This document shows, in pieces, positions 2,826-53,529 of a DNA stretch of 64,000 nucleotides. Numbering within the stretch: position 1 is the stretch's first letter; each line of letters opens with the position of its first letter. The DNA comes from Bacillota bacterium (GTDB lineage: Bacteria > Bacillota > Clostridia > Christensenellales > SZUA-584): positions 2,137 through 66,136 of the forward strand of contig JAEWQS010000077.1 in NCBI GenBank assembly GCA_023399095.1. Direction: 5' to 3'. Made by a program: the position numbers and the translations under genes. Under the pieces are notes generated by a model that saw only the letters and a list, made by a program, of their open reading frames with translations, was not told where the DNA came from and did no database searches.

Positions 2826-3086
2826 ATGGAACCATTAAGAGTTTCCACCAAGTCGCTGCCCAAATCCGTTGCGGGTGCTGTTGCGGCTATGATAAATGAG
2901 CATGGACATGCCGATATACTGGCCGTTGGTGCCGGCGCTGTCAATCAAGCCATTAAGGCGATTGCCATTACACGCGGATTTATGGCGCCGCGCGGCATCG
3001 AAATTGTCGTGATTCCCGCATTCGCCAATATCGAGATAGACGGCATAACAAGAACATCGATTAAGTTGGTCGTCGAGATTCGCTAG
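2826..3086 (+). CDS. spoVS: stage V sporulation protein S
   Basis: 86 aa MEPLRVSTKS...AVGAGAVNQAIKAIAI TRGF, typical SpoVS. ATG at 2826 follows a GGGGGA RBS, so the track start at 2814 is less likely. Confidence 0.9.
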   Translation: MEPLRVSTKSLPKSVAGAVAAMINEHGHADILAVGAGAVNQAIKAIAITRGFMAPRGIEIVVIPAFANIEIDGITRTSIKLVVEIR

Positions 3087-3229: not shown

Positions 3230-6200
3230 TTGCTTTATTTGTTTTTAAAATGCATTGAAATGACGGGATTCAAGTCTTTCCCTGAGAAAACGCAAATGCA
3301 TATGAACGGGTCAATCATCGGCGTTGTGGGGCCTAATGGCAGCGGCAAGAGCAATATTTCTGATGCTGTGAGATGGGTGCTCGGCGAACAGAGCCCGCGT
3401 ATGCTGCGCGGCGGTATGATGCAGGATGTGATTTTTGCGGGCACGCAGACTCGCAAACCGCGTTCATACTGTGAGGTGACGCTCGTGTTCGATAACACGG
3501 ATGCGCGGCTTGGCACCGATTATACCGATATCGGGATATCACGTAAGCTTTACCGCAGCGGCGAGAGTGAGTATGCCATCAACAACACAAAATGCCGCCT
3601 TAAGGATATTTTGGAGCTTTTTCGCGATACGGGCATCGGCAAGGAAGGTTACTCGATCATCGGACAAGGGCGTATCGACGAAATACTAAGCGAAAAGTCG
3701 ACTGACCGCCGCCGCGTATTTGAGGAAGCCGCGGGTATCATGAAATACCGTGTGCGCAAGGAAGAGGCGGAGCGTAAGCTTGACAGAACGCGCCAGAATC
3801 TCGTTCGCGTGGAAGATATTCTGCGTGAGCAATCGTTTATGATTGAGCCGCTTAAAAAGCAGGCGGATGACGCGACGGTGTATTTGGAGCTTGGCAAACG
3901 GCTAAAAACGCTGGATGTCAACCTGTTCCTGCGCAACTACGATAAGCAAACAGAAAAGATCGCGCGGCTGGAAGCCACGAAGGTCGAGCTGGAAGAAGAG
4001 CGCGCCGAAAAGGAAAAGCTGCTTAACGATCTGACTGAGATACTTGCGCAGCAGCAGGAAGAAGCGCGCCGTTCCGAAGAACAGGGCGGAGAGCTTGCGC
4101 AGCAGATCAGCGTCAGCATGGCCGAGCTCGAACGTGTGGAAGGCGAGATCAGGCTTTGTGAAGAGCGTATCGCCAACATCGATAAAGACAGTGAGCGTGT
4201 GCGGAGCGAAAATGCCGAGGCCGAGAAAAAGATAGTGGAGCTGTCGCTCAATAAACAGACAAATTTAAGCCGCATCAAGCAGATTGAAAGCGAGCTGGAG
4301 CGGTATAAGCAAATCGCGGCAGATACATGCAAAGAGCTTGAGGCACTGACCAGTGCCGTGGAAGACCGTGTTCGTGTGATCGAGACGGTGCAGAGCGAAA
4401 AGGTTCAGAGCATCGAGAAAATGGCCGATGTGCGCAGCGCCGTGTCTGCCTTGGAAGAAAAGGGCAGCCATCTTATGCAGCGGCTCGCGGAAACCGAGAC
4501 GCAAATGGCGGCGCTGACAGAAGAAAAAGCAAAATCCGAACAGGCGCTCGTTGCGCTGGACGAAGGGCTGCAACAGCTTTCGCAAAAGTCTGGCGATATT
4601 CGCCGCCGGTTTAACGAAACGATACAAAAGGAACGCGCCGCGTCCACATATTTTGCGGAGACGCAGCAAGCCCTTGAGGCTGCGAGGCGTGAATACGCGT
4701 CCAGCGCGGCTTCGGCGAGGTTCCTTGGCGAAATGAAGGCGAGCTTCGAAGGCTATGCCGAGAGCGTAAAAAACCTCATGCTCGCGGGAAAATCCAATAA
4801 GGAGCTTGGCGGTCGCATCGTCGGCACCGTGGCAGACGTTATGTCTGTACCGGCCAAATATGAAGCCGCAGTGGAAACCTGCCTGGGCGCGGCATTGCAG
4901 AACATCATCGTTAATGATGAGTTCGACGCAAAGCAGCTTATCGCCTATCTTCGCCAGCAGAGTCTGGGGCGTGTCACATTCCTGCCGCTACAGGCACTGC
5001 GTCCGCGTTCACTTTCGGATGAAGAACGCGCCAAAATAAAAGAAAACGGCGTCTATGGCATTGCAAGCGAGCTGGTATCGTGCCATACAGCGCAAAAAGC
5101 CATCGATTTTCTGCTGGGGCGCACCGTGATCGTCAGAGACAACGATACGGCAATTCGCGTGATGAGAAACTGCAATCAGGCCTTTCGCGTGGTGACGCTT
5201 GAGGGCGATGTGTTCAACCCGGGCGGCTCCATCACGGGCGGAAGCGTGCGCCGCGAAAGAAGCGGGCTGGTCTCAAGAGATCGCCGCGAGGAAGAATTAA
5301 AGCAGCGCGCGGCCAATCTGGCCGAGCAGGTCTCGGAGCTGGAAAAAGCGCTCGAAGCGCGTAAAGCCGATCGTGACAGCCTGCAGGAAGAAATAGAGAA
5401 GCTGCGCACCGCGCTGCATGATAACGAGATTGAGGCGGCCACGGGACGCGAAAAGCGTGAAGCCTTGGTGGCAGCTGAACAGGACGCTCAGCGCCGCGGC
5501 GAAGCCTTGCAGAAGGAACGCAGTGAGCTCAAGCAAAGCCACATCGGGATCAACGAAGAAATTAAGCGGTTTGCCGCGCTGCAAAGCGATATCAAGCAGT
5601 CTAGCGAGACGCGCAGCGAGGATTATAAACGGCTGGAAGATGAATATACTAAGAATGCGGCTCAAATTGAGCTGTTAAAGCAGCGCCAGCATGATGCCGA
5701 ACTCAAAAGCGCCGAGATGTTCCGTGAAAACGCCTCGCTTATGAACGACAATCTGCGTCTTGGTATGGAACGGCAGGAGGCTGAGCGCATGCGCTCAGCG
5801 CGTAATAAGACGTTGGAACTCAACGCCGAGAGCGAGGAGAACCTAAGGCAGATAAAGGCACAGCTTGAGGAAAAACAGGGCGAGAAGAAAAACGCGCTTG
5901 AGGGTTTGAGGCAAAAGCAAAGAGACATGACACAAGGGAGAAGCGCGTCATTGCAGGCGCTGACCGAGCTGGAAGCGCTTATGGACAAGACACGAAGAGA
6001 GGGCGCCGAAGCATCTGAGAAGGCAATGCGAACGTCGTTTAACATTGAAAAGACGCAGGGCGAAATGGAAGCCGCTCAGAACAGGCTCTGGGATACGCAT
6101 CAGCTCACCTATGCAAACGCGTTGGCTGCGCGTGAGGATATCGATCTTTCAGGCGCACAGTCCGAAGCGGACGAGATTCGTGAAAAGCTGCGTGAGCTGG

Positions 6201-11631: not shown

Positions 11632-12136
11632 AATTGCACGCATACTAAAGCCGCATGGTATTCGGGGAGACTCAAAGGTCAGGCTGTTTTCGGAAAACCT
11701 TGACGCCTTCGCCGAACGCGGTTTTGCTTATATCAAAAAGAACAGCGACTATCAGCGCACCGCTTATACGGCGGTGCGTATTGACGCGCCCTTTGTTTAT
11801 GTGCATTTTGACGGTGTGGATACGAGAAACGATGCGGAAGCGCTGACAGGCACCACGCTTTATCTGCGTCGGGAAGATCTTGACGTTCCGGACGAAGGTG
11901 AACACTATATCATTGATCTCATCGGTCTAAAGATCGTTGACGATGATGGAAATGAGCTGGGAACCCTCAAAGAGATTTTGCAGCACGGCGCGGCAGATGT
12001 TTATGTGGTGGGCGGCAAAAAGAGCTTCATGTTTCCAGCACTTAAACGCGTGATTCTCAATATCGATATGGAAAAGGGCATGATAAGCGTGAACGCTGCG
12101 GCACTGGCCGAGGTGGCCGTTTATGACGACTTATAA
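11624..12136 (+). CDS. rimM: 16S rRNA processing protein RimM
   Basis: MIEIARILKPHGIRG start at 11624 (ATGA-type overlap with the KH gene); PRC-barrel C-terminus. Confidence 0.9.
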   Translation: MIEIARILKPHGIRGDSKVRLFSENLDAFAERGFAYIKKNSDYQRTAYTAVRIDAPFVYVHFDGVDTRNDAEALTGTTLYLRREDLDVPDEGEHYIIDLIGLKIVDDDGNELGTLKEILQHGAADVYVVGGKKSFMFPALKRVILNIDMEKGMISVNAAALAEVAVYDDL

Positions 12137-12857
12137 CGTATTGACTCTGTTCCCCGAGATGTTCGAGTCGGTCTGCGCGGCCAGTATATGGGCGCGAGCC
12201 ATCAAAGCGGGACATATCGCTGTCAAAACGGTGAACATTCGCGATTGGACGACGGATAAGCACCACCGCGCTGACGACTATCCTTTGGGCGGCGGCGTGG
12301 GTATGGTGATGAAGCCTGAACCAGTGGACGCATGCTTCAAGGATGTGATGAGCAGTTGTGAAGCGCCTTGCCTCAACATCTATATGTCACCCTGCGGAAA
12401 AACGCTGTCACATTCGCTTGTGACGGAGCTGGCACAGTACCAAAGCCTCAACATCCTCTGCGGCCACTACGAAGGTGTGGACGCGCGCGTGCTCAAACGC
12501 CACATCGATATTGAGGTGTCGATAGGGGATTATGTGCTGACGGGCGGTGAGCTTGCAGCCATGGTACTGATCGATGCGTGCATCCGCCACGTAGACGGTG
12601 TGCTGGGGAACGGCGAGTCGGCGGTAGGAGAATCGTTTGCTAACGCGCTGCTCGAATACCCGCAGTATACGCGCCCTGCCGTTTACGACGGCGAAGCGGT
12701 GCCCGAGGTGCTGCTATCCGGCCATCATGCAAATGTGGACGCATACAGACGGCGCATGTCACTTAAAGAAACCGCTTTTCGGCGGCCCGACCTGCTTTCC
12801 AAGGCGAGGCTCACACAAAAGGATATCGACATCATCACAAGTCAAGACGACGAATAG
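12123..12857 (+). CDS. trmD: tRNA (guanine37-N1)-methyltransferase
   Basis: 244 aa. VLTLFPEMF N-terminus and GHYEGVDARV, VLTGGELAAMVLIDA motifs. Confidence 0.95.
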   Translation: MTTYNVLTLFPEMFESVCAASIWARAIKAGHIAVKTVNIRDWTTDKHHRADDYPLGGGVGMVMKPEPVDACFKDVMSSCEAPCLNIYMSPCGKTLSHSLVTELAQYQSLNILCGHYEGVDARVLKRHIDIEVSIGDYVLTGGELAAMVLIDACIRHVDGVLGNGESAVGESFANALLEYPQYTRPAVYDGEAVPEVLLSGHHANVDAYRRRMSLKETAFRRPDLLSKARLTQKDIDIITSQDDE

Positions 12858-12956
12858 CCCGCGCAAGCGGCGGCCTGAGAAAACGGTGCACTTGGCAAAC
12901 TATTCGATGCGCTTGCAAGCGCAAGCGGTAAAATGCCTTTATAGGGCTAAAGCTTA

Positions 12957-12987
12957 CCACTGGCTGACCGGTGGTCCTGATTTTGTT
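12957..12987 (+). terminator. possible terminator after trmD
   Basis: CCACTGG-CTGA-CCGGTGG stem (one wobble) followed by a T-rich tail. Confidence 0.45.
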
Positions 12988-13019
12988 AATAAAATGTGAA
13001 AATAATCCCTCTTATACTC

Positions 13020-13047
13020 TTGACATGAATCGTAAATTATATATAAT
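13020..13047 (+). promoter_or_regulatory. sigma-A-type promoter for tRNA-Asn
   Basis: TTGACA-N16-TATAAT ending about 19 nt before the tRNA 5' end. Confidence 0.5.
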
Positions 13048-13065
13048 AAAAAATCGGAAAACCGT

Positions 13066-13140
13066 TCCTCAGTAGCTCAGCGGTAGAGCATTCGGCTGTT
13101 AACCGAAGGGTCGTTGGTTCAAACCCAACCTGGGGAGCCA
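13066..13140 (+). tRNA. tRNA-Asn (anticodon GTT), CCA encoded
   Basis: Manual cloverleaf: acceptor TCCTCAG/CTGGGGA, D stem GCTC/GAGC, anticodon stem TTCGG/CCGAA with loop CTGTTAA, T stem GTTGG/CCAAC with loop TTCAAAC, discriminator G, CCA. Confidence 0.95.
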
Positions 13141-13143
13141 CAA

Positions 13144-13172
13144 GCTCAAGGCATAAAACCTTGGGCTTTTTT
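13144..13172 (+). terminator. rho-independent terminator after tRNA-Asn
   Basis: GCTCAAGG / CCTTGGGC stem followed by T6. Confidence 0.75.
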
Positions 13173-13223
13173 AATTCCTTTTCGCTAATGGGTAATACAT
13201 ATAAGTAAAATGATAATAAATTA

Positions 13224-13252
13224 TTGAAAAACAATAAATTATATGTTATAAT
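13224..13252 (+). promoter_or_regulatory. sigma-A-type promoter for the exosortase-like operon
   Basis: TTGAAA-N17-TATAAT in a very AT-rich spacer. Confidence 0.5.
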
Positions 13253-13315
13253 TACCAAAACAATGAGCGGAACAATTCGTTTTTTCAAGTAGCTTCGAGC
13301 TTCTTATAGGAGTCA

Positions 13316-13837
13316 ATGTACGTGAATTTAAAAAGACAGAAAACTGATTATATCAATATCCTTTTCGCAGCTTTCGCGATTGCTTTTAGCGTACTGTTCA
13401 TTCTCGCATATAATATGGCCAATGATAAAGCTATAGCGTTGCTGCTTTCACCCCATGCGATGTTCACAGAGCTCTTCTACAATATCAATCTGACCTATGT
13501 TGAAAATGTCGGTTACATAGGGCTTGGCACTGCCTTTATTATCGCAAAAGATTGCTTTGGTGTTTATTTTGTTGCGATGCTATTTTGTATGTTTGTGTGC
13601 GGTTTTGTGAAACAATTCAGTAGCGTCAAAAAGCTGTATTGGTGTGGATTTTCGTTTGTTTTGGCGGTGGTTGTGGGCGTTCTGGTCAGTTGTATGCGAA
13701 TCATAGGCTCTATACCTTTTGTATCTTCAGAAAAGTTTTCAACACTGCATACGGGAATAGGCGCTGTTTTGTATTTGCTTACGCTGATCTCTAGTTACGC
13801 CATCTTAAGAAATATTTTAAGGAGACAAAAAACGTGA
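13316..13837 (+). CDS. exosortase/archaeosortase-like polytopic membrane protein (putative sorting transpeptidase)
   Basis: 173 aa with about 5-6 TM helices. Ordered candidate triad: Cys80 (IIAKDCFG, TGC 13553-13555), Arg128 (SCMRIIG, CGA 13697-13699), His145 (STLHTGIG, CAT 13748-13750). Stop overlaps the start of the next gene. Start could be GTG 13322. Confidence 0.6.
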   Translation: MYVNLKRQKTDYINILFAAFAIAFSVLFILAYNMANDKAIALLLSPHAMFTELFYNINLTYVENVGYIGLGTAFIIAKDCFGVYFVAMLFCMFVCGFVKQFSSVKKLYWCGFSFVLAVVVGVLVSCMRIIGSIPFVSSEKFSTLHTGIGAVLYLLTLISSYAILRNILRRQKT

Positions 13838-16506
13838 AAATAAGCAAACAATCAATTGGCTTTTTGTGTGTCGTAACACTGCCTCAATTACTGCTGTCAG
13901 TTCTTTTTGCTTTGCTGCTGCTTCAAAAACCAAATGAAGTGGCTGGATGGGTGCTTGCAGCCTCACTGGTCGCAAATGTGTTTTTTACTGTCTACGTGTT
14001 TATTAAAGGCAAAACTCAAAGCCTGTCTATGCGCTTTCATATGTTGCTGGCTTGTACTTACGCCGCGATGCTCATCGGGGGCATGGTTTTGCTTGAAGAC
14101 AGCAGCCTATGGGGGGTTATGAGCGTGCGCCTTACGGCATTGCTTATTGATTCCGCTGCGGTTATTTACGCCTTATTTCAAATTGCAAATCGTACATCCG
14201 CCGATATCTCAAAGCAGATCGTCGCTTTGGTGGCCGTGCCGCTTATTTGGTTGTTTGCTTACAACATTCTGAGCGGTGCCCGTCTAGATACAGCTGTCAT
14301 GATACTGATTGTTTTGGGCGGCATTGTCATGGCGTATCTTATCATCAAGATAATATTGGTGAAACGACAGGAGAAGATCGAGTCTGGACAAAGGCCAAAA
14401 AGGCTGGCGCTTTATATCATATTCTCCTTGGTGTTACCGATAGCCGGGCTGACACTTAACGTCAGCATGGATAACCTTTTCGGCGATTTTTCTGATCCTC
14501 TTTTCTTTTTCGTTCCTTTTATTAACGGTGTTTTGCTGATCGTACCGCCGCCGTCGGAGAAACGGCTGCGGCTGCTTCGCTTTTTCATTATAGCTGCCGC
14601 AACAACGTATTTGCTCTATTTCTTCATTGCGTTTTTGCCGTACATGCCGATTGGTTTTCTTGGCTTGGCGATTGTGCTTGGGGCATTGGTTTTTGCACCG
14701 GCAGCTGCACTTGTTATGCAAATCATTTATCTGATTCAAGAGTGGAAGGCAGTTTCCGTTCTTTGGGGTACCATTCGGTTGACGGCTGTTTTTGTTGCCG
14801 GGCTTGTTTTGCTGCCGATACTGGTGCTCACAAGCTATCTGGGAGATCGTGTAAATCTCGAAAAAGCGATAGCATACACTGAGCAGGATATCAGTGTAAA
14901 TGGTGAGATCATTGATTTTGGCCGACTGGACAGAGCACTTGATAACGCGGATGCCGTTGAAGAGAAGGATCGGTTTTTTGATATGCGAGTAGCAGACAAC
15001 ACGCCGATTCTGTCTTCAATCTATGCTCATTTGGTTCTGGACAGCCGTATCCTTGCAAACGACCGGCTGGAGAAACTGCGAATGGCTTTCTTTGGGGAGT
15101 ATCCTGAGCAGGGTTTTGCGAACGGTTTGACGACAGATATGGAGATGCCGCAGGTTAAGCTCAAGGATATATCAACTCAAACGACATTTGACAATACAAC
15201 AGGCATTTTTCGAACATGGGTGAATATCACCCTGCAGGGGCCCAAAAACGGATGGAATGAGGAATACGTCACAGAGTTTGCGCTGCCCGAAGGCGCATAC
15301 ATCAGCGACTATTACCTTGATGTATTTGGCACGAAGAAGATGGGTATTTTGGCAGACCAAAGAGCTGCCATGTGGCTTTATAATGATATCGTTGTGCAAA
15401 CACCTGCACAGGACCCCGGCTTGCTTCACTATACGGGAGACCGGACAATTGAACTGAGGGTTTATCCGTTTAACGGAGATGAGCCGCGTTATACCGGCTT
15501 TGAAATCATCCACAACGAAACGGCAACGATACGAATTGATGGGGAAGAGGTACTGCTGTCGGCTCCGCCGCAGACCCGGCTGAAGGAAATGGAACACGCT
15601 GTGCTGATACCCGGAGCGGTGAAAGACGGGCTGCCGGTGGCTCAGGAGAGACCGCGCCGGTATTACTTCATCGTCGATTGCTCTAAAGACAGCGACATTG
15701 ACGATCAGCTATACCGCATCGAAGATTATGCTCAAGGTAAAGGGATTTTAGATGCGACGGTTATTTTTGCGACATATAAAACCAACACATGCCGTTTGAA
15801 AAATGCCGATTCGGTTAACATCACGCCCCAGAGCGGTTTTAATCTTGCGTTGGCAGTCAAGTCAATTCTGATACAAAACGGAGACGACAGTGTGCCGGTT
15901 ATACTATTCACGTCCGATAACCCTGCTCTGGCGCTGATTCCGAAAAATGTAACGGTTCTTGCGGCTCAGTATCCGGAAAGCGATTATTACTATCGATTAA
16001 ACGCTGACGAAACGCTAAACGGTTATGATTTTGAAACAGGAAAAAATGTTGGAAAGATGAACCAGCCACTCATATCACAAGCGCGGATGTATAACGGTGT
16101 GAGGGTGCGGGATGACAGCCAAACTCAAATCTTACCTAACGATTCCGTTGATTTTATGGATATGGAGATTTCGGGTAACGAATACGAGCAGGCTGTTATG
16201 CTGGACATAGCGGCGAGAAACGGTGGAGCGCAGAACGCAGCGCAGTCACTCAAACTGCTGCGTGCAAGCTTCAAGGCGGGCATTTTAACACCGCAGACAG
16301 CGTTTATCGTTGTGGAAACGCAGGCGCAGGAAGTCGATCTTCTTGCGAAGCAGCAGCAATTGATCAAGGAGGACAAAGAACTGATAAAAGAACAGAATGC
16401 TGTGAAATCTCTGGATGAGCCGTCAGCCTTGGTATGCGCGTTTATCGCCTTGCTTGGCCTCTCTTTGGTAAAACTGTGGAAAAGAAACAGAACAGAAACT
16501 CGTTGA
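13834..16506 (+). CDS. 890-aa polytopic membrane protein with VIT-like and vWA-like regions and a C-terminal PEP-CTERM-style (DEP-TM-KRNR) sorting tail
   Basis: GTG start in a GTGA overlap, AAGGAGA RBS. About 11 hydrophobic helices in aa 1-340. VIT-like stretch FALPEGAYISDYYLDVFGTK...DPGLLHY...IELRVYPF. vWA-like YYFIVDCSKDSD. Tail LDEPSALVCAFIALLGLSLVKLWKRNRTETR. Confidence 0.65.
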   Translation: MKISKQSIGFLCVVTLPQLLLSVLFALLLLQKPNEVAGWVLAASLVANVFFTVYVFIKGKTQSLSMRFHMLLACTYAAMLIGGMVLLEDSSLWGVMSVRLTALLIDSAAVIYALFQIANRTSADISKQIVALVAVPLIWLFAYNILSGARLDTAVMILIVLGGIVMAYLIIKIILVKRQEKIESGQRPKRLALYIIFSLVLPIAGLTLNVSMDNLFGDFSDPLFFFVPFINGVLLIVPPPSEKRLRLLRFFIIAAATTYLLYFFIAFLPYMPIGFLGLAIVLGALVFAPAAALVMQIIYLIQEWKAVSVLWGTIRLTAVFVAGLVLLPILVLTSYLGDRVNLEKAIAYTEQDISVNGEIIDFGRLDRALDNADAVEEKDRFFDMRVADNTPILSSIYAHLVLDSRILANDRLEKLRMAFFGEYPEQGFANGLTTDMEMPQVKLKDISTQTTFDNTTGIFRTWVNITLQGPKNGWNEEYVTEFALPEGAYISDYYLDVFGTKKMGILADQRAAMWLYNDIVVQTPAQDPGLLHYTGDRTIELRVYPFNGDEPRYTGFEIIHNETATIRIDGEEVLLSAPPQTRLKEMEHAVLIPGAVKDGLPVAQERPRRYYFIVDCSKDSDIDDQLYRIEDYAQGKGILDATVIFATYKTNTCRLKNADSVNITPQSGFNLALAVKSILIQNGDDSVPVILFTSDNPALALIPKNVTVLAAQYPESDYYYRLNADETLNGYDFETGKNVGKMNQPLISQARMYNGVRVRDDSQTQILPNDSVDFMDMEISGNEYEQAVMLDIAARNGGAQNAAQSLKLLRASFKAGILTPQTAFIVVETQAQEVDLLAKQQQLIKEDKELIKEQNAVKSLDEPSALVCAFIALLGLSLVKLWKRNRTETR

Positions 16507-16799
16507 TTAAATGCAAAGACATAGCCAAGAAAAGGCTTTATCAGTGTTGATAAGTGGATTTCAATACGATGATAAGAGTTTTTAACGTGGGGTTTATCCG
16601 CTGCTTCATCAATCGCTTACGCTCATGGGAAGACATATGTCCCTTGATTAACACTTTGGCATAGCCGTAAACAGCTGTGCCTTTTTCATTTAGTATAACC
16701 CGTACTCATTTGATTCAATGTCACTATTGACAATATATAAGGCATATAATAAAATACATATGACCAATATAGTAAAAACAGTCACAGGAGATTAGACTT

Positions 16800-22406: not shown

Positions 22407-22970
22407 TTGCCTGACGAACAGCTGCTGCTTGAGACCTTTTCCAACGGAGACTTTACATATATCGATTTGTTGATCTGCCGGTATGAGGACAGCTTATTAA
22501 ACTTATGCCTCAAACTCGCGAAAAATAAGCATGACGCTGAGGAACTGTATCAGCAAACGTGGCTTAAAGCCATACAGAAATCGCATACGTGTGCAAAATC
22601 GTTTAAAAACTGGCTGTATACCGTCTGCCTAAACGCATACAGGGACAGCTACCGACGCAGCAGACGTGAACGAGAAGTCGTCGATGACTCGCTGGACGCT
22701 GAGACAAAGGATTATGTGATCGCGTCGGCAACCGATAATATATCGGCGGAAAGCGAAGCGCTTGCCAAATTGACGGGCGAGATACTGATGAATAAAGTGA
22801 ATATGCTGCCCGACAAACACAGACTGCCGATTATATTGTTTTATTTTGAGAGGCTCGACTACAAAGAAAGCGCGGCAGTGCTGGGGCTGCCCATGGGCAC
22901 GGTCAAATCCCGTTTAAACGCTGCCAAATCCAAGCTGCGTAAGGAAATGGAGAACGAACTGAATGTTTGA
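22407..22970 (+). CDS. ECF-type RNA polymerase sigma factor
   Basis: 187 aa. Region 2 (EELYQQTWLKA) and region 4 HTH (YKESAAVLGLPMGTVKSRL). Confidence 0.85.
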   Translation: MPDEQLLLETFSNGDFTYIDLLICRYEDSLLNLCLKLAKNKHDAEELYQQTWLKAIQKSHTCAKSFKNWLYTVCLNAYRDSYRRSRREREVVDDSLDAETKDYVIASATDNISAESEALAKLTGEILMNKVNMLPDKHRLPIILFYFERLDYKESAAVLGLPMGTVKSRLNAAKSKLRKEMENELNV

Positions 22971-24039
22971 TATTGAAAAAGAGTTAAGAGGAATAAAATT
23001 TGAAACAGCGCATCCAAGCGAGCGGCTTAGGCAAAAGACGCAGCAGCTCGTGACTCAAGAGGTGCGCAAAAAACAGCAGACCAAGCCAATTGGCAGGCTT
23101 ACATGGGTGCTGACATCAGCGATGGCGGTATTCGCCGCGTTTATGATAATTTTTTCGCTGCCTCCGGCTGCAGACGGGGTCAGTTATTATACCGTAGATA
23201 TTAACCCAAGTGTAAGCGTGAAGGTGAACGCATCCAAGACAGTCCTGGAGGTATCCGCAGAAAATGACGATGCGGTGCTGGTGCTCAAGACCGTAAAGCT
23301 TGAGGGACTTGCGCTTAAAGAAGCGCTTTCGGAATTTATAAAGGCCGCAGACGATCAGGGATACCTTAAGGATCAAGGACATGTGTTGGTTGCGCACTTT
23401 GGGGAGGCGGCGAGTCTGACTCAGCAGGAGATTGATGACGTCGTGAGCGGCGCTACGGAGCGCGAGGTGACAGCTCTGCTGCTTCAAAGCACAACGAACG
23501 AGTATGAGCAGAACAAAACACAGCATGGTCAGCCCGGCATTGAACTGCTCAAAAAGAAAGCGGCGGAACAGGGTATAAAGGAGCGCGATGTTGATGAAAT
23601 TATCGAGCAAATACGCGGAAATTCAGCCAAGCCGCAAAACGATAAGCAAAATACCCCAAATCACAGTGAAAAGGCTGACGATCGCCCAACAGCTACAGCC
23701 ATCGAAAACGATCAGAGTGAAAAGGACAACAGCGGAGGCGCAGGCAATAGCGAAAACGCAAAAGACAACGAGCAAGGGGCTTCAAACATTGGGAGCGACA
23801 ATAAAGACGGCGAAGAAGTGAAAGAAAACAACGGCAAGGTTGAGGACAAGCCGGTCAGCGGCAGCAATGGCAATCAGAACAGCAACAACCAAGATAACGG
23901 CAATCAGAACAGCAACGACCAAGACAAGAGCGATGTGGACAAAACCGAAAAGCCTGACAATAGTGACGGAAGTCAAAAGGACAAAAACCGCAGTGGTAGT
24001 CGGCAGGAAAATGATGAACAAAACGAGCAAAAAGACTAG
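22963..24039 (+). CDS. putative single-pass anti-sigma factor with extracytoplasmic DINPS-type domain and N/Q/D-rich tail
   Basis: 8-nt overlap with the sigma gene, short cytoplasmic N-terminus and one TM. Domain YYTVDINPSVSVKVN...VLEVSAENDDA is shared with the next gene. Confidence 0.6.
   Translation: MFDIEKELRGIKFETAHPSERLRQKTQQLVTQEVRKKQQTKPIGRLTWVLTSAMAVFAAFMIIFSLPPAADGVSYYTVDINPSVSVKVNASKTVLEVSAENDDAVLVLKTVKLEGLALKEALSEFIKAADDQGYLKDQGHVLVAHFGEAASLTQQEIDDVVSGATEREVTALLLQSTTNEYEQNKTQHGQPGIELLKKKAAEQGIKERDVDEIIEQIRGNSAKPQNDKQNTPNHSEKADDRPTATAIENDQSEKDNSGGAGNSENAKDNEQGASNIGSDNKDGEEVKENNGKVEDKPVSGSNGNQNSNNQDNGNQNSNDQDKSDVDKTEKPDNSDGSQKDKNRSGSRQENDEQNEQKD
23869..23928. repeat. 2 x 30-bp in-frame tandem repeat (NGNQNSN[ND]QD)
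   Basis: GGCAATCAGAACAGCAAC[A/G]ACCAAGA[T/C]AA[C/G] duplicated head to tail inside the anti-sigma tail. Confidence 0.8.
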
Positions 24040-24070
24040 TGAAGCAGATATTTTATAGGGAGGCAACAAG

Positions 24071-25357
24071 ATGAAACATTTTAAAGGACAGAAATCCTTG
24101 GCATTATTGCTAAGTCTCACAATGATAGTGGCATTCGTGTTTACAGGATGCGCGACGACACCGCAAACGACGCAGCCGGAGACATCACCGACAACAGCGC
24201 CAACCATTGCGCCCACTGCGGCGCAGACAATGGCGGCTTTGCCGACTCAGGCGGTATCCCAGCAGCTAAGTTATGTGTCTATTGACGTGAACCCGAGTAT
24301 CAAGTTTACCGTTCAGGACGGTGTCGTACTGGACGTCAGCGCGCTTAACGATGACGGCGAAGCCATCACGCTGGAAAACGATGTGACTGGCCTTACACCA
24401 ACTGAGGCGCTGAACGCTTTGATTGGGGCATTCGCGAACGGCGGCTATATCACAGAGGAAGATGGAAACGCGTCTCTCGTGATTACCACAAGCGGAGATG
24501 ATGAAGAAGAACTGCTGCAGAACCTGCAAGACACAGCGACACAGCGCTTAACAGAGCTTGGTCTTGCGTGTGATGTGGTGGTGTCTGCCGTCGAAGATGA
24601 AATCACAGAGGAAGCGAAGCTGAACGGCCTGACACCCGGCAGATATTTGCTGCTCAGTTATCTTGCCGAAAAAGAAGGCATCACGCTGGAAGAAGCAAAA
24701 GCAAAGTATGGCTCGCTCAAGATGGGTAAGATGGTTAAGCTCGTGGACGATGTGGACGAAGTTTTCGGGCACAAGGACGATGAAAAAGATATGCAGGAAC
24801 TTGTGGACAGCGGCATACTCACGGCTGAGCAGCTTGAGATATTGACGCAGGCGCAGAACACATTTAAGACTTCCATGAAGCAGGCACAGCAGACCTATAA
24901 ACAAACGAGAACCGATGCCATGGATCTGTTGAAGGCCTCAAAAACCGAACTCAAAAATGCGTTTAAGGCCGATAAAGATGTTGACAAATACAAGTCTGCC
25001 AAAACCGCGCTCCAAGTACAGCTCGAACAACAAAAGCAGACAGCTATTCAGACTTATAAGCAGGCCAAGGTACAGGCCAGGGAACAATTCAGAGCCACGG
25101 TACAGTCACTTGGGCTGACGGATGAACAAATTGCCGCCCTGACGCAATGGGACTTCGACTTTGATTGGGACCAGGATTATGACTGGGACGATGAAGACAT
25201 TGAAAACGATAACGACGGCATCAAAGACGAAGATATTGATGAAGAAGACGAAAAAGACGAAGATATTGATGAAGAAGACGAAAAAGACGAAGATAAAGAG
25301 GATGACGAGCCCGGTAAAGGTAATAACGATAAAGGCAAAAACGGCAAAGGCAACTGA
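24071..25357 (+). CDS. lipoprotein paralogous to the anti-sigma ectodomain, with coiled-coil and acidic repeat tail
   Basis: Lipobox VFTGC. YVSIDVNPSIKFTVQDGVVLDVSALNDDGEA domain, Q/K-rich helical region, DEDIDEEDEK repeats. Confidence 0.6.
   Translation: MKHFKGQKSLALLLSLTMIVAFVFTGCATTPQTTQPETSPTTAPTIAPTAAQTMAALPTQAVSQQLSYVSIDVNPSIKFTVQDGVVLDVSALNDDGEAITLENDVTGLTPTEALNALIGAFANGGYITEEDGNASLVITTSGDDEEELLQNLQDTATQRLTELGLACDVVVSAVEDEITEEAKLNGLTPGRYLLLSYLAEKEGITLEEAKAKYGSLKMGKMVKLVDDVDEVFGHKDDEKDMQELVDSGILTAEQLEILTQAQNTFKTSMKQAQQTYKQTRTDAMDLLKASKTELKNAFKADKDVDKYKSAKTALQVQLEQQKQTAIQTYKQAKVQAREQFRATVQSLGLTDEQIAALTQWDFDFDWDQDYDWDDEDIENDNDGIKDEDIDEEDEKDEDIDEEDEKDEDKEDDEPGKGNNDKGKNGKGN
25226..25295. 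repeat. 2.3 x 30-bp in-frame tandem repeat (DEDIDEEDEK)
   Basis: GACGAAGATATTGATGAAGAAGACGAAAAA repeated exactly twice, plus a partial third unit. Confidence 0.85.
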
Positions 25358-52155: not shown

Positions 52156-53235
52156 TCACCTGTCGAAATATCCCTTGGCGGCGAGCAGCTCGGCCATCAG
52201 CACAGCGCCGCCTGCTGCACCGCGCAGCGTGTTGTGGCTGAGGCATACAAATTTATAATCGTAAATCGGATCTTCACGCAGTCGGCCAATCGACACAGCC
52301 ATACCGTTGCCGTTATCGCGGTCTATGCGCGTCTGCGGACGTGCGTCATCCTCAAAATACATGAGGAACTGCTCGGGTGCGCTGGGGAGCCCCAGCTCCT
52401 GCGGAACGCCCTTAAAGCTCTGCCACCTTTTCTTTATTTCATCGATAGACGGCTTCTTGGCGAACTTCACAAATGTTGCCGCCATGTGCCCATCAGATGC
52501 GGGAACGCGGATGCACTGTGTGGTGATCACGGGTTTTTGCGTGTTCACAATCACATCACCCTCGATTTGGCCCCAGATCTTAAGAGGCTCCTGCTCGCTC
52601 TTTTGCTCTTCGCCACCGATATACGGGATGACGTTATCCACCATTTCCGGCCAGGAATCAAATGTTTTGCCGGCGCCGGATATGGCCTGGTATGTGCAGG
52701 CCACGACTTGCTCAACGCCAAAGTCCATGAGCGGATGCAGGGCAGGCACATAGGTCTGTATCGAACAGTTGGGCTTTACGGAAATAAAGCCGCGCTTTGT
52801 GCCAAGGCGTTTGCGTTGGCTGTCAATAATATTCACATGCTCCGCGTTGATCTCGGGCATCAGCATCGGCACATCGGGTGTGCCGCGGTGAGCGCTGTTG
52901 TTCGAAACCACGGGGATTTCTGCTTTAGCATATGCCTCTTCGAGCTGTTTTGTCAGTGCTTTGTCGAGGCTGATTGCGCAGAATACGAAATCCACCGTCT
53001 GTGCGGCTTTGTCAATATCCGACGCGTCATAGACGTTCATTTTTGCAATTTTCTCGGGCAGCGGCGTTGACATTGCCCAGCGTCCTTCCACAGCTTCGCC
53101 GTATGTTTTTCCGGCGGAGCGTTCGCTCGCGCTCAAAAGAGCAATCTCAAACCATGGATGGTCTGCCAGCAGAGAGATAAAGCGCTGTCCGACCATGCCT
53201 GTTGCACCTACGATGCCTACGTTAAACTTTTTCAC
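52156..53235 (-). CDS. asd: aspartate-semialdehyde dehydrogenase
   Basis: GTG start at 53235 behind a GGAGGA RBS (VKKFNVGIVGATGMVGQRF). Active-site KPNCS. The track N-terminal extension is rejected. Confidence 0.95.
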   Translation of the reverse strand: MKKFNVGIVGATGMVGQRFISLLADHPWFEIALLSASERSAGKTYGEAVEGRWAMSTPLPEKIAKMNVYDASDIDKAAQTVDFVFCAISLDKALTKQLEEAYAKAEIPVVSNNSAHRGTPDVPMLMPEINAEHVNIIDSQRKRLGTKRGFISVKPNCSIQTYVPALHPLMDFGVEQVVACTYQAISGAGKTFDSWPEMVDNVIPYIGGEEQKSEQEPLKIWGQIEGDVIVNTQKPVITTQCIRVPASDGHMAATFVKFAKKPSIDEIKKRWQSFKGVPQELGLPSAPEQFLMYFEDDARPQTRIDRDNGNGMAVSIGRLREDPIYDYKFVCLSHNTLRGAAGGAVLMAELLAAKGYFDR

Positions 53236-53271
53236 CCGTTTATCCTCCAAATTAATAAAAATATCTTTAGA

Positions 53272-53506
53272 CAAAAATAGTGCGCATAACCATATATAGC
53301 GCACCACCGTCATAAACTGCAAATCTTAATGAAATGCCAGACTACAGCAGCGCTCCGTCTTAAAAAGACGGCAGTTGCATGGCTGTTAACCATACCCCCA
53401 GGCCAAACCTTTACGGACGGTTCACCTTCGGCAGTTTCCCCTTTCTCATGCGCTTCACCGGCACCCGCTGCCTCTACACATATACTCTTGAAAACCGCGC
53501 CTCAAA
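53272..53506 (-). promoter_or_regulatory. lysine riboswitch (L-box) with terminator, leader of asd-dapA-dapB
   Basis: Minus-strand RNA contains GAGGCGCGGTTTTCAAGAGTA, GAAAGGGGAAACTGCCGAAGG, CCTGGGGGTATGG...CCAT and the CCGTCTT-TTT-AAGACGGAG hairpin, matching conserved L-box elements. Terminator GTGCGC-N13-GCGCAC+TATTTTTG at 53272-53305. Confidence 0.8.
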
Positions 53507-53529
53507 CTGTAATGGTATTAATGACTATG

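Follow-up and report, generated by a model that had tools for sequence, protein, structure and literature searches.

Two overlapping genes in a 64,000-nucleotide stretch of DNA from a Bacillota bacterium (Clostridia, Christensenellales; contig JAEWQS010000077.1 of assembly GCA_023399095.1; "the window" below means this whole stretch) very probably form a self-contained operon that encodes a dedicated C-terminal sorting system, one enzyme for one substrate, of the XrtK/MSEP-CTERM type and from a Bacillota branch of that family. The first gene, xrtK (13316 to 13837, plus strand), runs from an ATG to a TGA at 13835 to 13837 and encodes 173 amino acids, and the second, the MSEP-CTERM protein gene (13834 to 16506, plus strand), starts with a GTG at 13834 to 13836 and encodes 890. 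Scores against family models, invariant residues, translational coupling, joint loss of the two partners in other genomes, the correlated divergence of enzyme and substrate, and the predicted topology of both proteins together favor this reading.

Exosortases are a large and poorly understood group of prokaryotic protein-sorting enzymes, and we know of no bacterial member for which either the cleavage site or the acceptor has been established. An enzyme of 173 residues with a single substrate, found in single-membrane spore-formers where no outer membrane complicates localization, would offer a tractable model.

Family membership and candidate catalytic residues

Against the NCBIfam model for exosortase K (TIGR04287), the 173-residue protein scored 128.1 bits (cut-off 55, E = 2.2e-37) over model positions 2 to 162 of 163. 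The 890-residue protein scored 702.3 bits against the MSEP-CTERM model TIGR04286 (cut-off 150, E = 8.9e-211), with its residues 11 to 877 aligned to positions 10 to 911 of 920. Judged by these sequence models, the small protein is a member of the exosortase K family and the large one a full-length member of the MSEP-CTERM family. An earlier note, written from the letters of this DNA alone, had asked whether the small protein resembles any exosortase model, which it does, and had named the XrtK/MSEP-CTERM pair as the closest analogue; it picked the right pair, but the genes in the window belong to that family rather than being analogous to it. "Exosortase K" is already the JGI and NCBI name for many XrtK proteins.

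The candidate catalytic residues follow one another as Cys80 (13553 to 13555, in IIAKDCFG), Arg128 (13697 to 13699, in SCMRIIG), and His145 (13748 to 13750, in STLHTGIG), in the order and contexts that the earlier note had read. Cys80 was present in all 75 sequences compared (the window and 74 open reading frames [ORFs] from related loci), and Arg128 and His145 were present in 74, the remaining sequence having an unread residue at that place. MAFFT alignments of 72 locus-derived and 62 database sequences, most of them homologs only about 20 to 25% identical to the XrtK of the window, left C80, G82, R128, H145, and G149 invariant, which answers the note's question of whether the three positions are conserved. 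In exosortases and archaeosortases the catalytic set is inferred to be Cys/Arg/His, and mutagenesis of artA supports the identity of these enzymes as cysteine proteases (10.1101/2023.06.07.544157). By homology, XrtK would be an intramembrane cysteine protease and possibly also a transpeptidase.

One residue near the candidate nucleophile sets this XrtK apart. Residue 84 (13565 to 13567), four positions past Cys80, is a tyrosine, where 91% of the family has asparagine, including the other Bacillota sequences listed, so that the local motif reads CFGVYF against a consensus of CSGxNF.

Predicted topology, ectodomain, and sorting signal

The AlphaFold2 model of XrtK (predicted local distance difference test score, pLDDT, 92; predicted template modeling score, pTM, 0.85) and a hydropathy scan agree on four long helices (residues 5 to 34, about 78 to 100, 105 to 135, and 141 to 172), with an outside segment between helices 1 and 2 that consists of a helix (37 to 55) and a small hairpin (59 to 69). 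Clusters of lysine and arginine are found at both termini and in the loop joining helices 2 and 3, and hydropathy together with the positive-inside rule predicts a cytoplasmic N-terminus. In this N-in model, helix 2 has Cys80 at its outer start, helix 3 has Arg128 about 7 residues away from its outer end, and helix 4 has His145 about 4 residues in, positions near outer helix ends that would place all three residues in the outer leaflet. A profile search of solved structures with XrtK gave nothing meaningful (best E = 1.1), and Foldseek returned generic helical bundles alone for the model (E of 0.2 or more, template modeling [TM] score about 0.25).

The large protein begins with a polytopic domain (residues 1 to 338; 13834 to 14847, plus strand) for which hydropathy and AlphaFold2 both give 11 transmembrane helices, the number that the earlier note had estimated. 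Helices 1 to 6 span about residues 7 to 31, 35 to 58, 66 to 86, 98 to 120, 125 to 148, and 152 to 179, and helices 7 to 11 about 188 to 211, 223 to 236, 243 to 278, 282 to 311, and 313 to 350. The loops that follow helices 2, 6, and 8 carry positive charge, which by the positive-inside rule predicts that the N-terminus of this protein is also inside. A conserved FGDFS motif (residues 216 to 220) lies in a predicted outward-facing loop of this domain, whose invariant residues are G217, D218, F263, F267, P269, and P272; searched alone, the domain had no relative in Pfam or the PDB. Residues 339 to 859 are predicted to form a 521-residue, net-acidic ectodomain outside, after which a last helix (864 to 882) crosses back.

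Within the ectodomain, homologs, the family profile, and Foldseek place a VIT-like beta-sandwich at about residues 442 to 575 (LPEGAYISDYYL...DPGLL...RVYPF; 15157 to 15558, plus strand). The model and Foldseek place a vWA-like alpha/beta domain at about residues 605 to 770 (15646 to 16143, plus strand), across which strands and helices alternate in the AlphaFold2 model. The Pfam VIT model (PF08487) gave 15.9 bits, under its gathering score of 26.5, and is recorded for many homologs of the protein; no Pfam VWA model matched in the Pfam scan. Both assignments therefore rest on homologs and predicted fold, and what stands of the VIT/vWA-like segments in the earlier note is their position and their predicted fold rather than a Pfam domain hit. 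Its label of a degenerate metal ion-dependent adhesion site (MIDAS) is apt: in D615-C-S617-K-D-S, D615 and S617 are invariant, and the later Thr/Asp positions of the DxSxS...T...D metal site are not conserved across the family.

When the AlphaFold2 model of the large protein (mean pLDDT 78) was compared with the PDB, the sole significant Foldseek match was inter-alpha-inhibitor heavy chain 1 (ITIH1; 6fpy/6fpz, E = 5e-9 to 2e-8, probability 1.00), aligned over about 590 columns and nearly the whole target chain. Sequence identity was about 9%, and the TM-scores were low (0.23 to 0.31), so the relative arrangement of the domains differs from that in ITIH1. The family profile also aligns weakly with the VIT domain of ITIH4 (E = 0.04); a second stretch, nonsignificant alone at -1.3 bits, resembles the conserved ...TPLTSMVV..., which here reads LTPQTAFIVVE. 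The eukaryotic VIT-vWA proteins ITIH1 and ITIH4 are thus alike to the ectodomain in best structure match and in VIT sequence, respectively. They differ in that an intact MIDAS is not kept in the window protein, where it is degenerate, and in that the processing machinery is unrelated.

Large exosortase-linked membrane proteins with a VIT-like segment are also known from the XrtN system (TIGR04477) and as the PEP-CTERM integral membrane protein TIGR02921. Membership in either family was rejected for the window protein, since its scores fall far under the cut-offs (44 bits against 250 for TIGR04477, confined to residues 474 to 553, and 14 against 200 for TIGR02921, in the VIT stretch only) and cover about 80 residues. 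Another one-enzyme/one-substrate pair is the dedicated proteobacterial sortase and its VIT-vWA LPXTG target (TIGR03788); in that system the sortase fold is unrelated to that of exosortases, the signal is of the LPXTG type, and the substrate has a signal peptide and no polytopic domain.

The C-terminus of the large protein reads ...KSLDEPSALVCAFIALLGLSLVKLWKRNRTETR and has the layout of a tripartite sorting signal (residues 860 to 890; 16411 to 16503, plus strand). L860-D-E-P863 is followed by 16 uncharged residues (19 counted to W882), which make up the hydrophobic helix 864 to 882, and by the basic tail KRNRTETR, so that the DEP motif, 19-residue helix, and KRNR described in the earlier note were all found. 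Among 23 homologs P863 is invariant and E862 nearly so, and 79 of the 81 family members end in xxEP, an uncharged stretch of 12 to 19 residues, and a K/R cluster. Ahead of LDEP come a long helix (830 to 855) and then a linker (853 to 863) with pLDDT below 50, which in the model suggests flexibility just before the motif. The LDEP motif directly adjoins the last helix at its outer end, the predicted side on which the XrtK triad also lies, and KRNR is inside. The literal Met-Ser-Glu-Pro is absent from the window protein, which has Leu-Asp-Glu-Pro with the E-P kept; as TIGR04286 is passed at full length, LDEP is a clade-level variant that leaves membership unaffected.

A tripartite signal with an E-P dipeptide and the inferred Cys/Arg/His set are features shared with XrtA/EpsH and PEP-CTERM proteins, whose substrates, in contrast, have signal peptides and whose setting is an exopolysaccharide (EPS) locus; the window has one substrate and no EPS neighbors. 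Classical XrtA/EpsH enzymes have many substrates each, accompany EPS genes, and in a 2006 survey were found exclusively in bacteria with an outer membrane (PMC1569441), which makes a Firmicute carrier look odd at first. A literature search for exosortases in Firmicutes (XrtG) returned nothing relevant. A classical PEP-CTERM/EPS system was considered for the window and rejected, given the absence of EPS neighbors, the single tail-bearing ORF in 64 kb, and the Firmicute markers; the NCBIfam scan found no PEP-CTERM domain model at an E value of 1 or less. Archaeosortase A (ArtA) and its PGF-CTERM substrates in Haloferax volcanii share with the window pair the enzyme superfamily, a single-membrane envelope, and a motif that abuts the helix. 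ArtA is larger and serves many signal-peptide substrates, including the S-layer glycoprotein, whereas here there is one polytopic substrate. In this archaeon, cleavage by ArtA is coupled to covalent lipid attachment that needs PssA and PssD homologs (PMC7157517).

These comparisons and the predicted topology can be combined in what we consider the most likely mechanism. The substrate would insert through its 11 helices with the N-terminus inside and display the VIT/vWA module outside the cell, and its last helix would re-enter the membrane with LDEP at the outer end and KRNR inside. XrtK would dock this helix laterally within the membrane, Cys80 would attack at or beside LDEP, and the helix with its basic tail would be released via an acyl-enzyme intermediate. 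Either water or an acceptor, for instance an amino-lipid or a polymer of the envelope, would then resolve this intermediate. Because the N-terminal domain keeps the mature protein anchored, processing would free or re-attach only the C-terminal end of the ectodomain. Cleavage, its exact site, the transfer step, the acceptor, and the cellular role are all parts of this scheme that we infer.

One possibility is that XrtK is purely hydrolytic: it would remove the last helix and attach nothing in its place, and the freed VIT/vWA module might, for instance, be activated or unfolded in this way, a reading that departs from the scheme above in the second half-reaction only. A new anchor would be unneeded where 11 helices already hold the protein, yet freeing one end of an already anchored protein has no obvious benefit. 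No acceptor-making gene is conserved beside the pair, but the Cys/Arg/His set equals that of sortase, a true transpeptidase. ArtA substrates end up lipid-modified in dependence on PssA/PssD (PMC7157517), although whether ArtA cleaves and attaches lipid in one step is still unclear (10.1101/2023.06.07.544157). On balance we hold purely hydrolytic processing to be possible, if somewhat doubtful.

It is more speculative, and in our view unlikely, that the XrtK of the monoderm clade with LxEP tails is a true transpeptidase that transfers the C-terminus of an ITIH-like ectodomain to an amino-lipid of the membrane or to a polymer of the wall or capsule. The 11-helix domain, with its outward FGDFS loop, might in that case help to present the acceptor. 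If true, the pair would be a bacterial counterpart both of archaeosortase lipid anchoring and of the ester-linking of animal heavy chains to glycosaminoglycan, a device of two genes that fastens a metal- or ligand-binding module to a Gram-positive envelope. Animal heavy chains shed a C-terminal pro-domain when an ester bond joins their newly formed C-terminus to chondroitin sulfate (PMC7170535), and this processing parallels the chemistry proposed for XrtK as an analogy, not as evidence.

Pairing and distribution across genomes

With each species represented by one genome, a scan recovered a relative of the large gene in 195 species, and the best 80 loci were compared. Immediately upstream of the large gene, on the same strand and usually overlapping it, xrtK was found in 74 of these loci; a further one (L034) has a C-terminal fragment of xrtK at the contig edge, and three (L016, L026, and L074) have no upstream DNA. 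With the fragment counted, 75 of the 77 loci for which upstream DNA is present have xrtK next to the large gene. In the other two, L021 (Synergistaceae) and L053 (Hymenobacter aranciens), no xrtK was found within 4 kb, and these two alone in the family also lack the xxEP tail. The earlier note had staked its proposal on the tail and the co-occurrence of the genes, and both withstood this comparison. In L021, a metagenome-assembled genome (MAG), the protein (3884 to 6151) ends early, and in L053 (3203 to 6184) it ends differently, with DDLPPVETP...GLAGWALRRR; the tails may have decayed, or a different sorting enzyme may have taken over.

Pairwise identities between enzymes correlate with those between substrates (r = 0.91, to which shared ancestry contributes), which indicates that xrtK and the large gene are inherited as a unit. 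When all ORFs of at least 90 amino acids from the 80 loci were clustered, no families except those of the pair itself were widely shared; ORFs that shadow the large gene on its antisense strand cluster as well and are not genes. No third conserved gene for an acceptor synthase, glycosyltransferase, or regulator was found, the next real clusters reaching at most 9 of the 80 loci. Some subclades have neighbors of their own upstream of xrtK: a winged-helix HTH_34 regulator, a 232-amino-acid protein, and CreD in some Bacteroidota (L022, 534 to 3036, and seven to eight other loci), and a DUF2975 membrane protein in five Bacillota (L005, 2730 to 3269, and four others). Such genes may encode regulators or partners specific to these lineages.

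Strict one-to-one adjacency, translational coupling, and a correlation of this strength would also fit obligate subunits of a stable membrane complex, in which the tail helix stays permanently docked and XrtK acts as an assembly partner or regulator without cleaving anything. Against such a complex, however, the invariance of Cys, Arg, and His across families about 20% identical points to catalysis over packing, XrtK belongs to a protease superfamily, and the tail shows the tripartite organization that is classic of cleavable signals; we regard a noncatalytic complex as very improbable.

Several points weigh against a dedicated XrtK/MSEP-CTERM system. On the generic model TIGR04178, the XrtK of the window scored 18.3 bits, below the cut-off of 23 (E = 0.002, residues 74 to 165), and the Pfam scan gave it no match, including to Exosortase_EpsH (PF09721). 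For both proteins the topology was derived by plain hydropathy scanning rather than by a trained predictor, no solved exosortase structure was found with which to compare the geometry of the XrtK triad, and among about 8 million papers searched none names MSEP-CTERM, exosortase K, or XrtK in its biological sense. The search for tail-bearing ORFs covered the 64-kb window, so other substrates or sorting enzymes may be encoded elsewhere in the genome. On the first of these points, 58 of the 62 aligned XrtK family members do match PF09721 (best E = 2.7e-9), so the homology of XrtK to the exosortase superfamily holds transitively.

The last point bears on whether XrtK serves several substrates encoded elsewhere, as XrtA does with PEP-CTERM proteins, the adjacent gene being just one of them. 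Only 64 kb of the genome was inspected, and classical exosortases do have many substrates (PMC1569441). Within the window, however, one ORF alone carries an xxEP/hydrophobic/basic tail, the adjacency recurs in 75 of 77 informative loci across phyla where the pair is the only conserved unit, and "dedicated" sorting systems are recognized by just such consecutive enzyme and target genes (10.1101/2023.06.07.544157). A multisubstrate XrtK accordingly seems to us quite unlikely.

A profile of the large-protein family matched 792 representatives of 50%-identity clusters at an E value of 1e-30 or less, among 1.84 billion representatives. The 150 best listed cluster representatives all scored above 750 bits, and as most of them matched nearly the whole profile, the architecture is conserved. 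At least 21 Bacillota species carry the pair (21 of the best 80 loci); as a Bacillota query ranks Bacillota first, 21 approximates the Bacillota total among the 195 species and is not a proportion. Among these carriers are Geosporobacter, Desulfotruncus, Desulfotomaculaceae, Pelotomaculum, Desulfocucumis, Peptococcaceae, Syntrophomonas, Lachnospiraceae, Clostridiaceae, Defluviitaleaceae, Anaeromicrobium, and other MAGs. The named genera are classical single-membrane ones. The loci outside Bacillota are mostly from Bacteroidota, with a few from Leptospiraceae, Balneola, Sulfurovum, Synergistaceae, and one Patescibacteria bin.

The novelty that the earlier note saw in a Firmicute carrier was thus overstated. 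NCBI already names the proteins of Desulfoscipio gibsoniae, Alkaliphilus peptidifermentans, and a Desulfotomaculaceae MAG "MSEP-CTERM sorting domain-containing protein," and ArtA, an exosortase-family enzyme, is known to work in single-membrane haloarchaea. The occurrence of the pair in Clostridia is already in public annotation, and what the window adds is a member of the LxEP Bacillota branch; for this DNA the gain is mainly one of correct annotation, with curated models already naming both genes.

In a rough neighbor-joining tree, the window and L001 to L018 form one clade, apart from a Bacteroidota-dominated clade. Window and Bacillota sequences are 34 to 47% identical among themselves and 25 to 30% identical to those of Bacteroidota, and the loop between XrtK helices 3 and 4 is 6 to 8 residues shorter in the Bacillota clade. 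The tails divide in a similar way: with the window included, 19 of 22 Bacillota sequences have LxEP (LDEP 13, LSEP 3, LAEP 2, and LNEP 1, with MSEP 2 and MVEP 1), and in Bacteroidota 45 of 51 have MSEP (with MTEP 4 and MAEP 1). Compared with the XrtK/MSEP-CTERM family at large, the pair of the window is alike in protein sizes, gene order, overlap, invariant Cys/Arg/His, and the combination of 11 helices, VIT/vWA module, and tail, and it is distinguished by its LDEP signature, the shorter XrtK helix 3-4 loop, and Tyr84.

A few Bacillota-labelled genomes, the MAGs L061, L069, and L070, have MSEP or MVEP tails. In the tree, which does not include L069, the Bacteroidota-dominated clade has L061, L070, and the Patescibacteria bin L046 as its basal branches. 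Such a pattern may reflect two or more transfers between phyla, or else errors in binning.

Operon signals, genome context, and host

The stop codon of xrtK and the start of the large gene share the sequence GTGA, and an AAGGAGA ribosome-binding site for the large gene (13819 to 13825, plus strand) lies within xrtK, 8 nucleotides before the GTG at 13834. Both features had been read in this way in the earlier note. Its length of 173 residues for the small protein holds for the ORF from the ATG at 13316; the public gene call (P0001) gives 171 amino acids from a GTG at 13322, two codons after that ATG, and with an AGGAG at 13306 to 13310 compatible with both, either start is possible.

A consensus scan found a putative promoter-like site 5' of xrtK (13224 to 13252, plus strand) that matches 11 of 12 positions, with TTGAAA and TATAAT 17 nucleotides apart and an extended TG. 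It is placed between the start of xrtK and the hairpin with a T-run (13142 to 13168) that ends the upstream tRNA-Asn gene. By the same kind of scan, a terminator-like hairpin (16658 to 16681) with its T-run, together 16658 to 16689 on the plus strand, closes the operon, and the next gene, for a TetR regulator, has a promoter-like site of its own at 16727 to 16755. With its own promoter-like site, terminator-like hairpins, and a separate TetR promoter-like site, xrtK and the large gene look like a self-contained operon.

Upstream of the pair are aspS, spoVS, smc, ftsY, ffh, rpsP, a KH-domain gene, rimM, trmD, and tRNA-Asn (13066 to 13140). Downstream are genes for a TetR regulator, an ABC exporter, a ferredoxin-like protein, and an NAD-binding protein, and further on a sigma factor, two RsgI-like anti-sigma factors, an MFS transporter, an M3 peptidase, VanW, and PFK. 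Among these neighbors in the 64-kb window no EPS or glycosyltransferase genes were found, in agreement with the earlier note. As a side observation, trmD is followed by tRNA-Asn and its terminator (12123 to 13316), with no rplS there, unlike the usual order rpsP-KH-rimM-trmD-rplS.

The G+C content of the operon is 0.36 to 0.49, against 0.50 to 0.58 in the flanks, and the flanks show no synteny with other loci except for a second assembly of the same organism. The position directly after tRNA-Asn, the low G+C content, and the unshared neighbors suggest a cassette-like insertion. These same three features could be taken as signs of recent horizontal import from diderm Bacteroidota, the pair having acquired no function suited to a monoderm envelope. 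Low G+C content is partly expected, however, of genes with many hydrophobic codons, both reading frames are intact and keep all family-invariant residues, and the pair falls in a deep Bacillota clade with its own LxEP motif, its own shorter XrtK loop, and higher identities within the clade than to Bacteroidota. Recent import without function is, to our mind, hardly credible.

The earlier note had placed the pair in a spoVS-carrying Firmicute, and spoVS is indeed present: SpoVS (2826 to 3083) is 60% identical to the Bacillus subtilis protein. The gene order smc-ftsY...ffh-rpsP-KH-rimM-trmD is typical of Firmicutes, and the closest relatives of the pair are labelled Bacillota. SpoVS, this gene order, the RsgI-like factors, and the relatives point indirectly to a monoderm spore-former as host, and the 64 kb read here would also be compatible with an outer membrane.

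Two other features of the window are of note. At 22407 to 25357, a gene of the sigma-70 family (regions 2 and 4) is followed by two tandem genes with RsgI-like central domains, an arrangement of the SigI/RsgI type that is typical of Clostridia. A lysine riboswitch (RF00168, 88.8 bits; 53340 to 53513, minus strand) lies 5' of a minus-strand ORF at 52156 to 53322.

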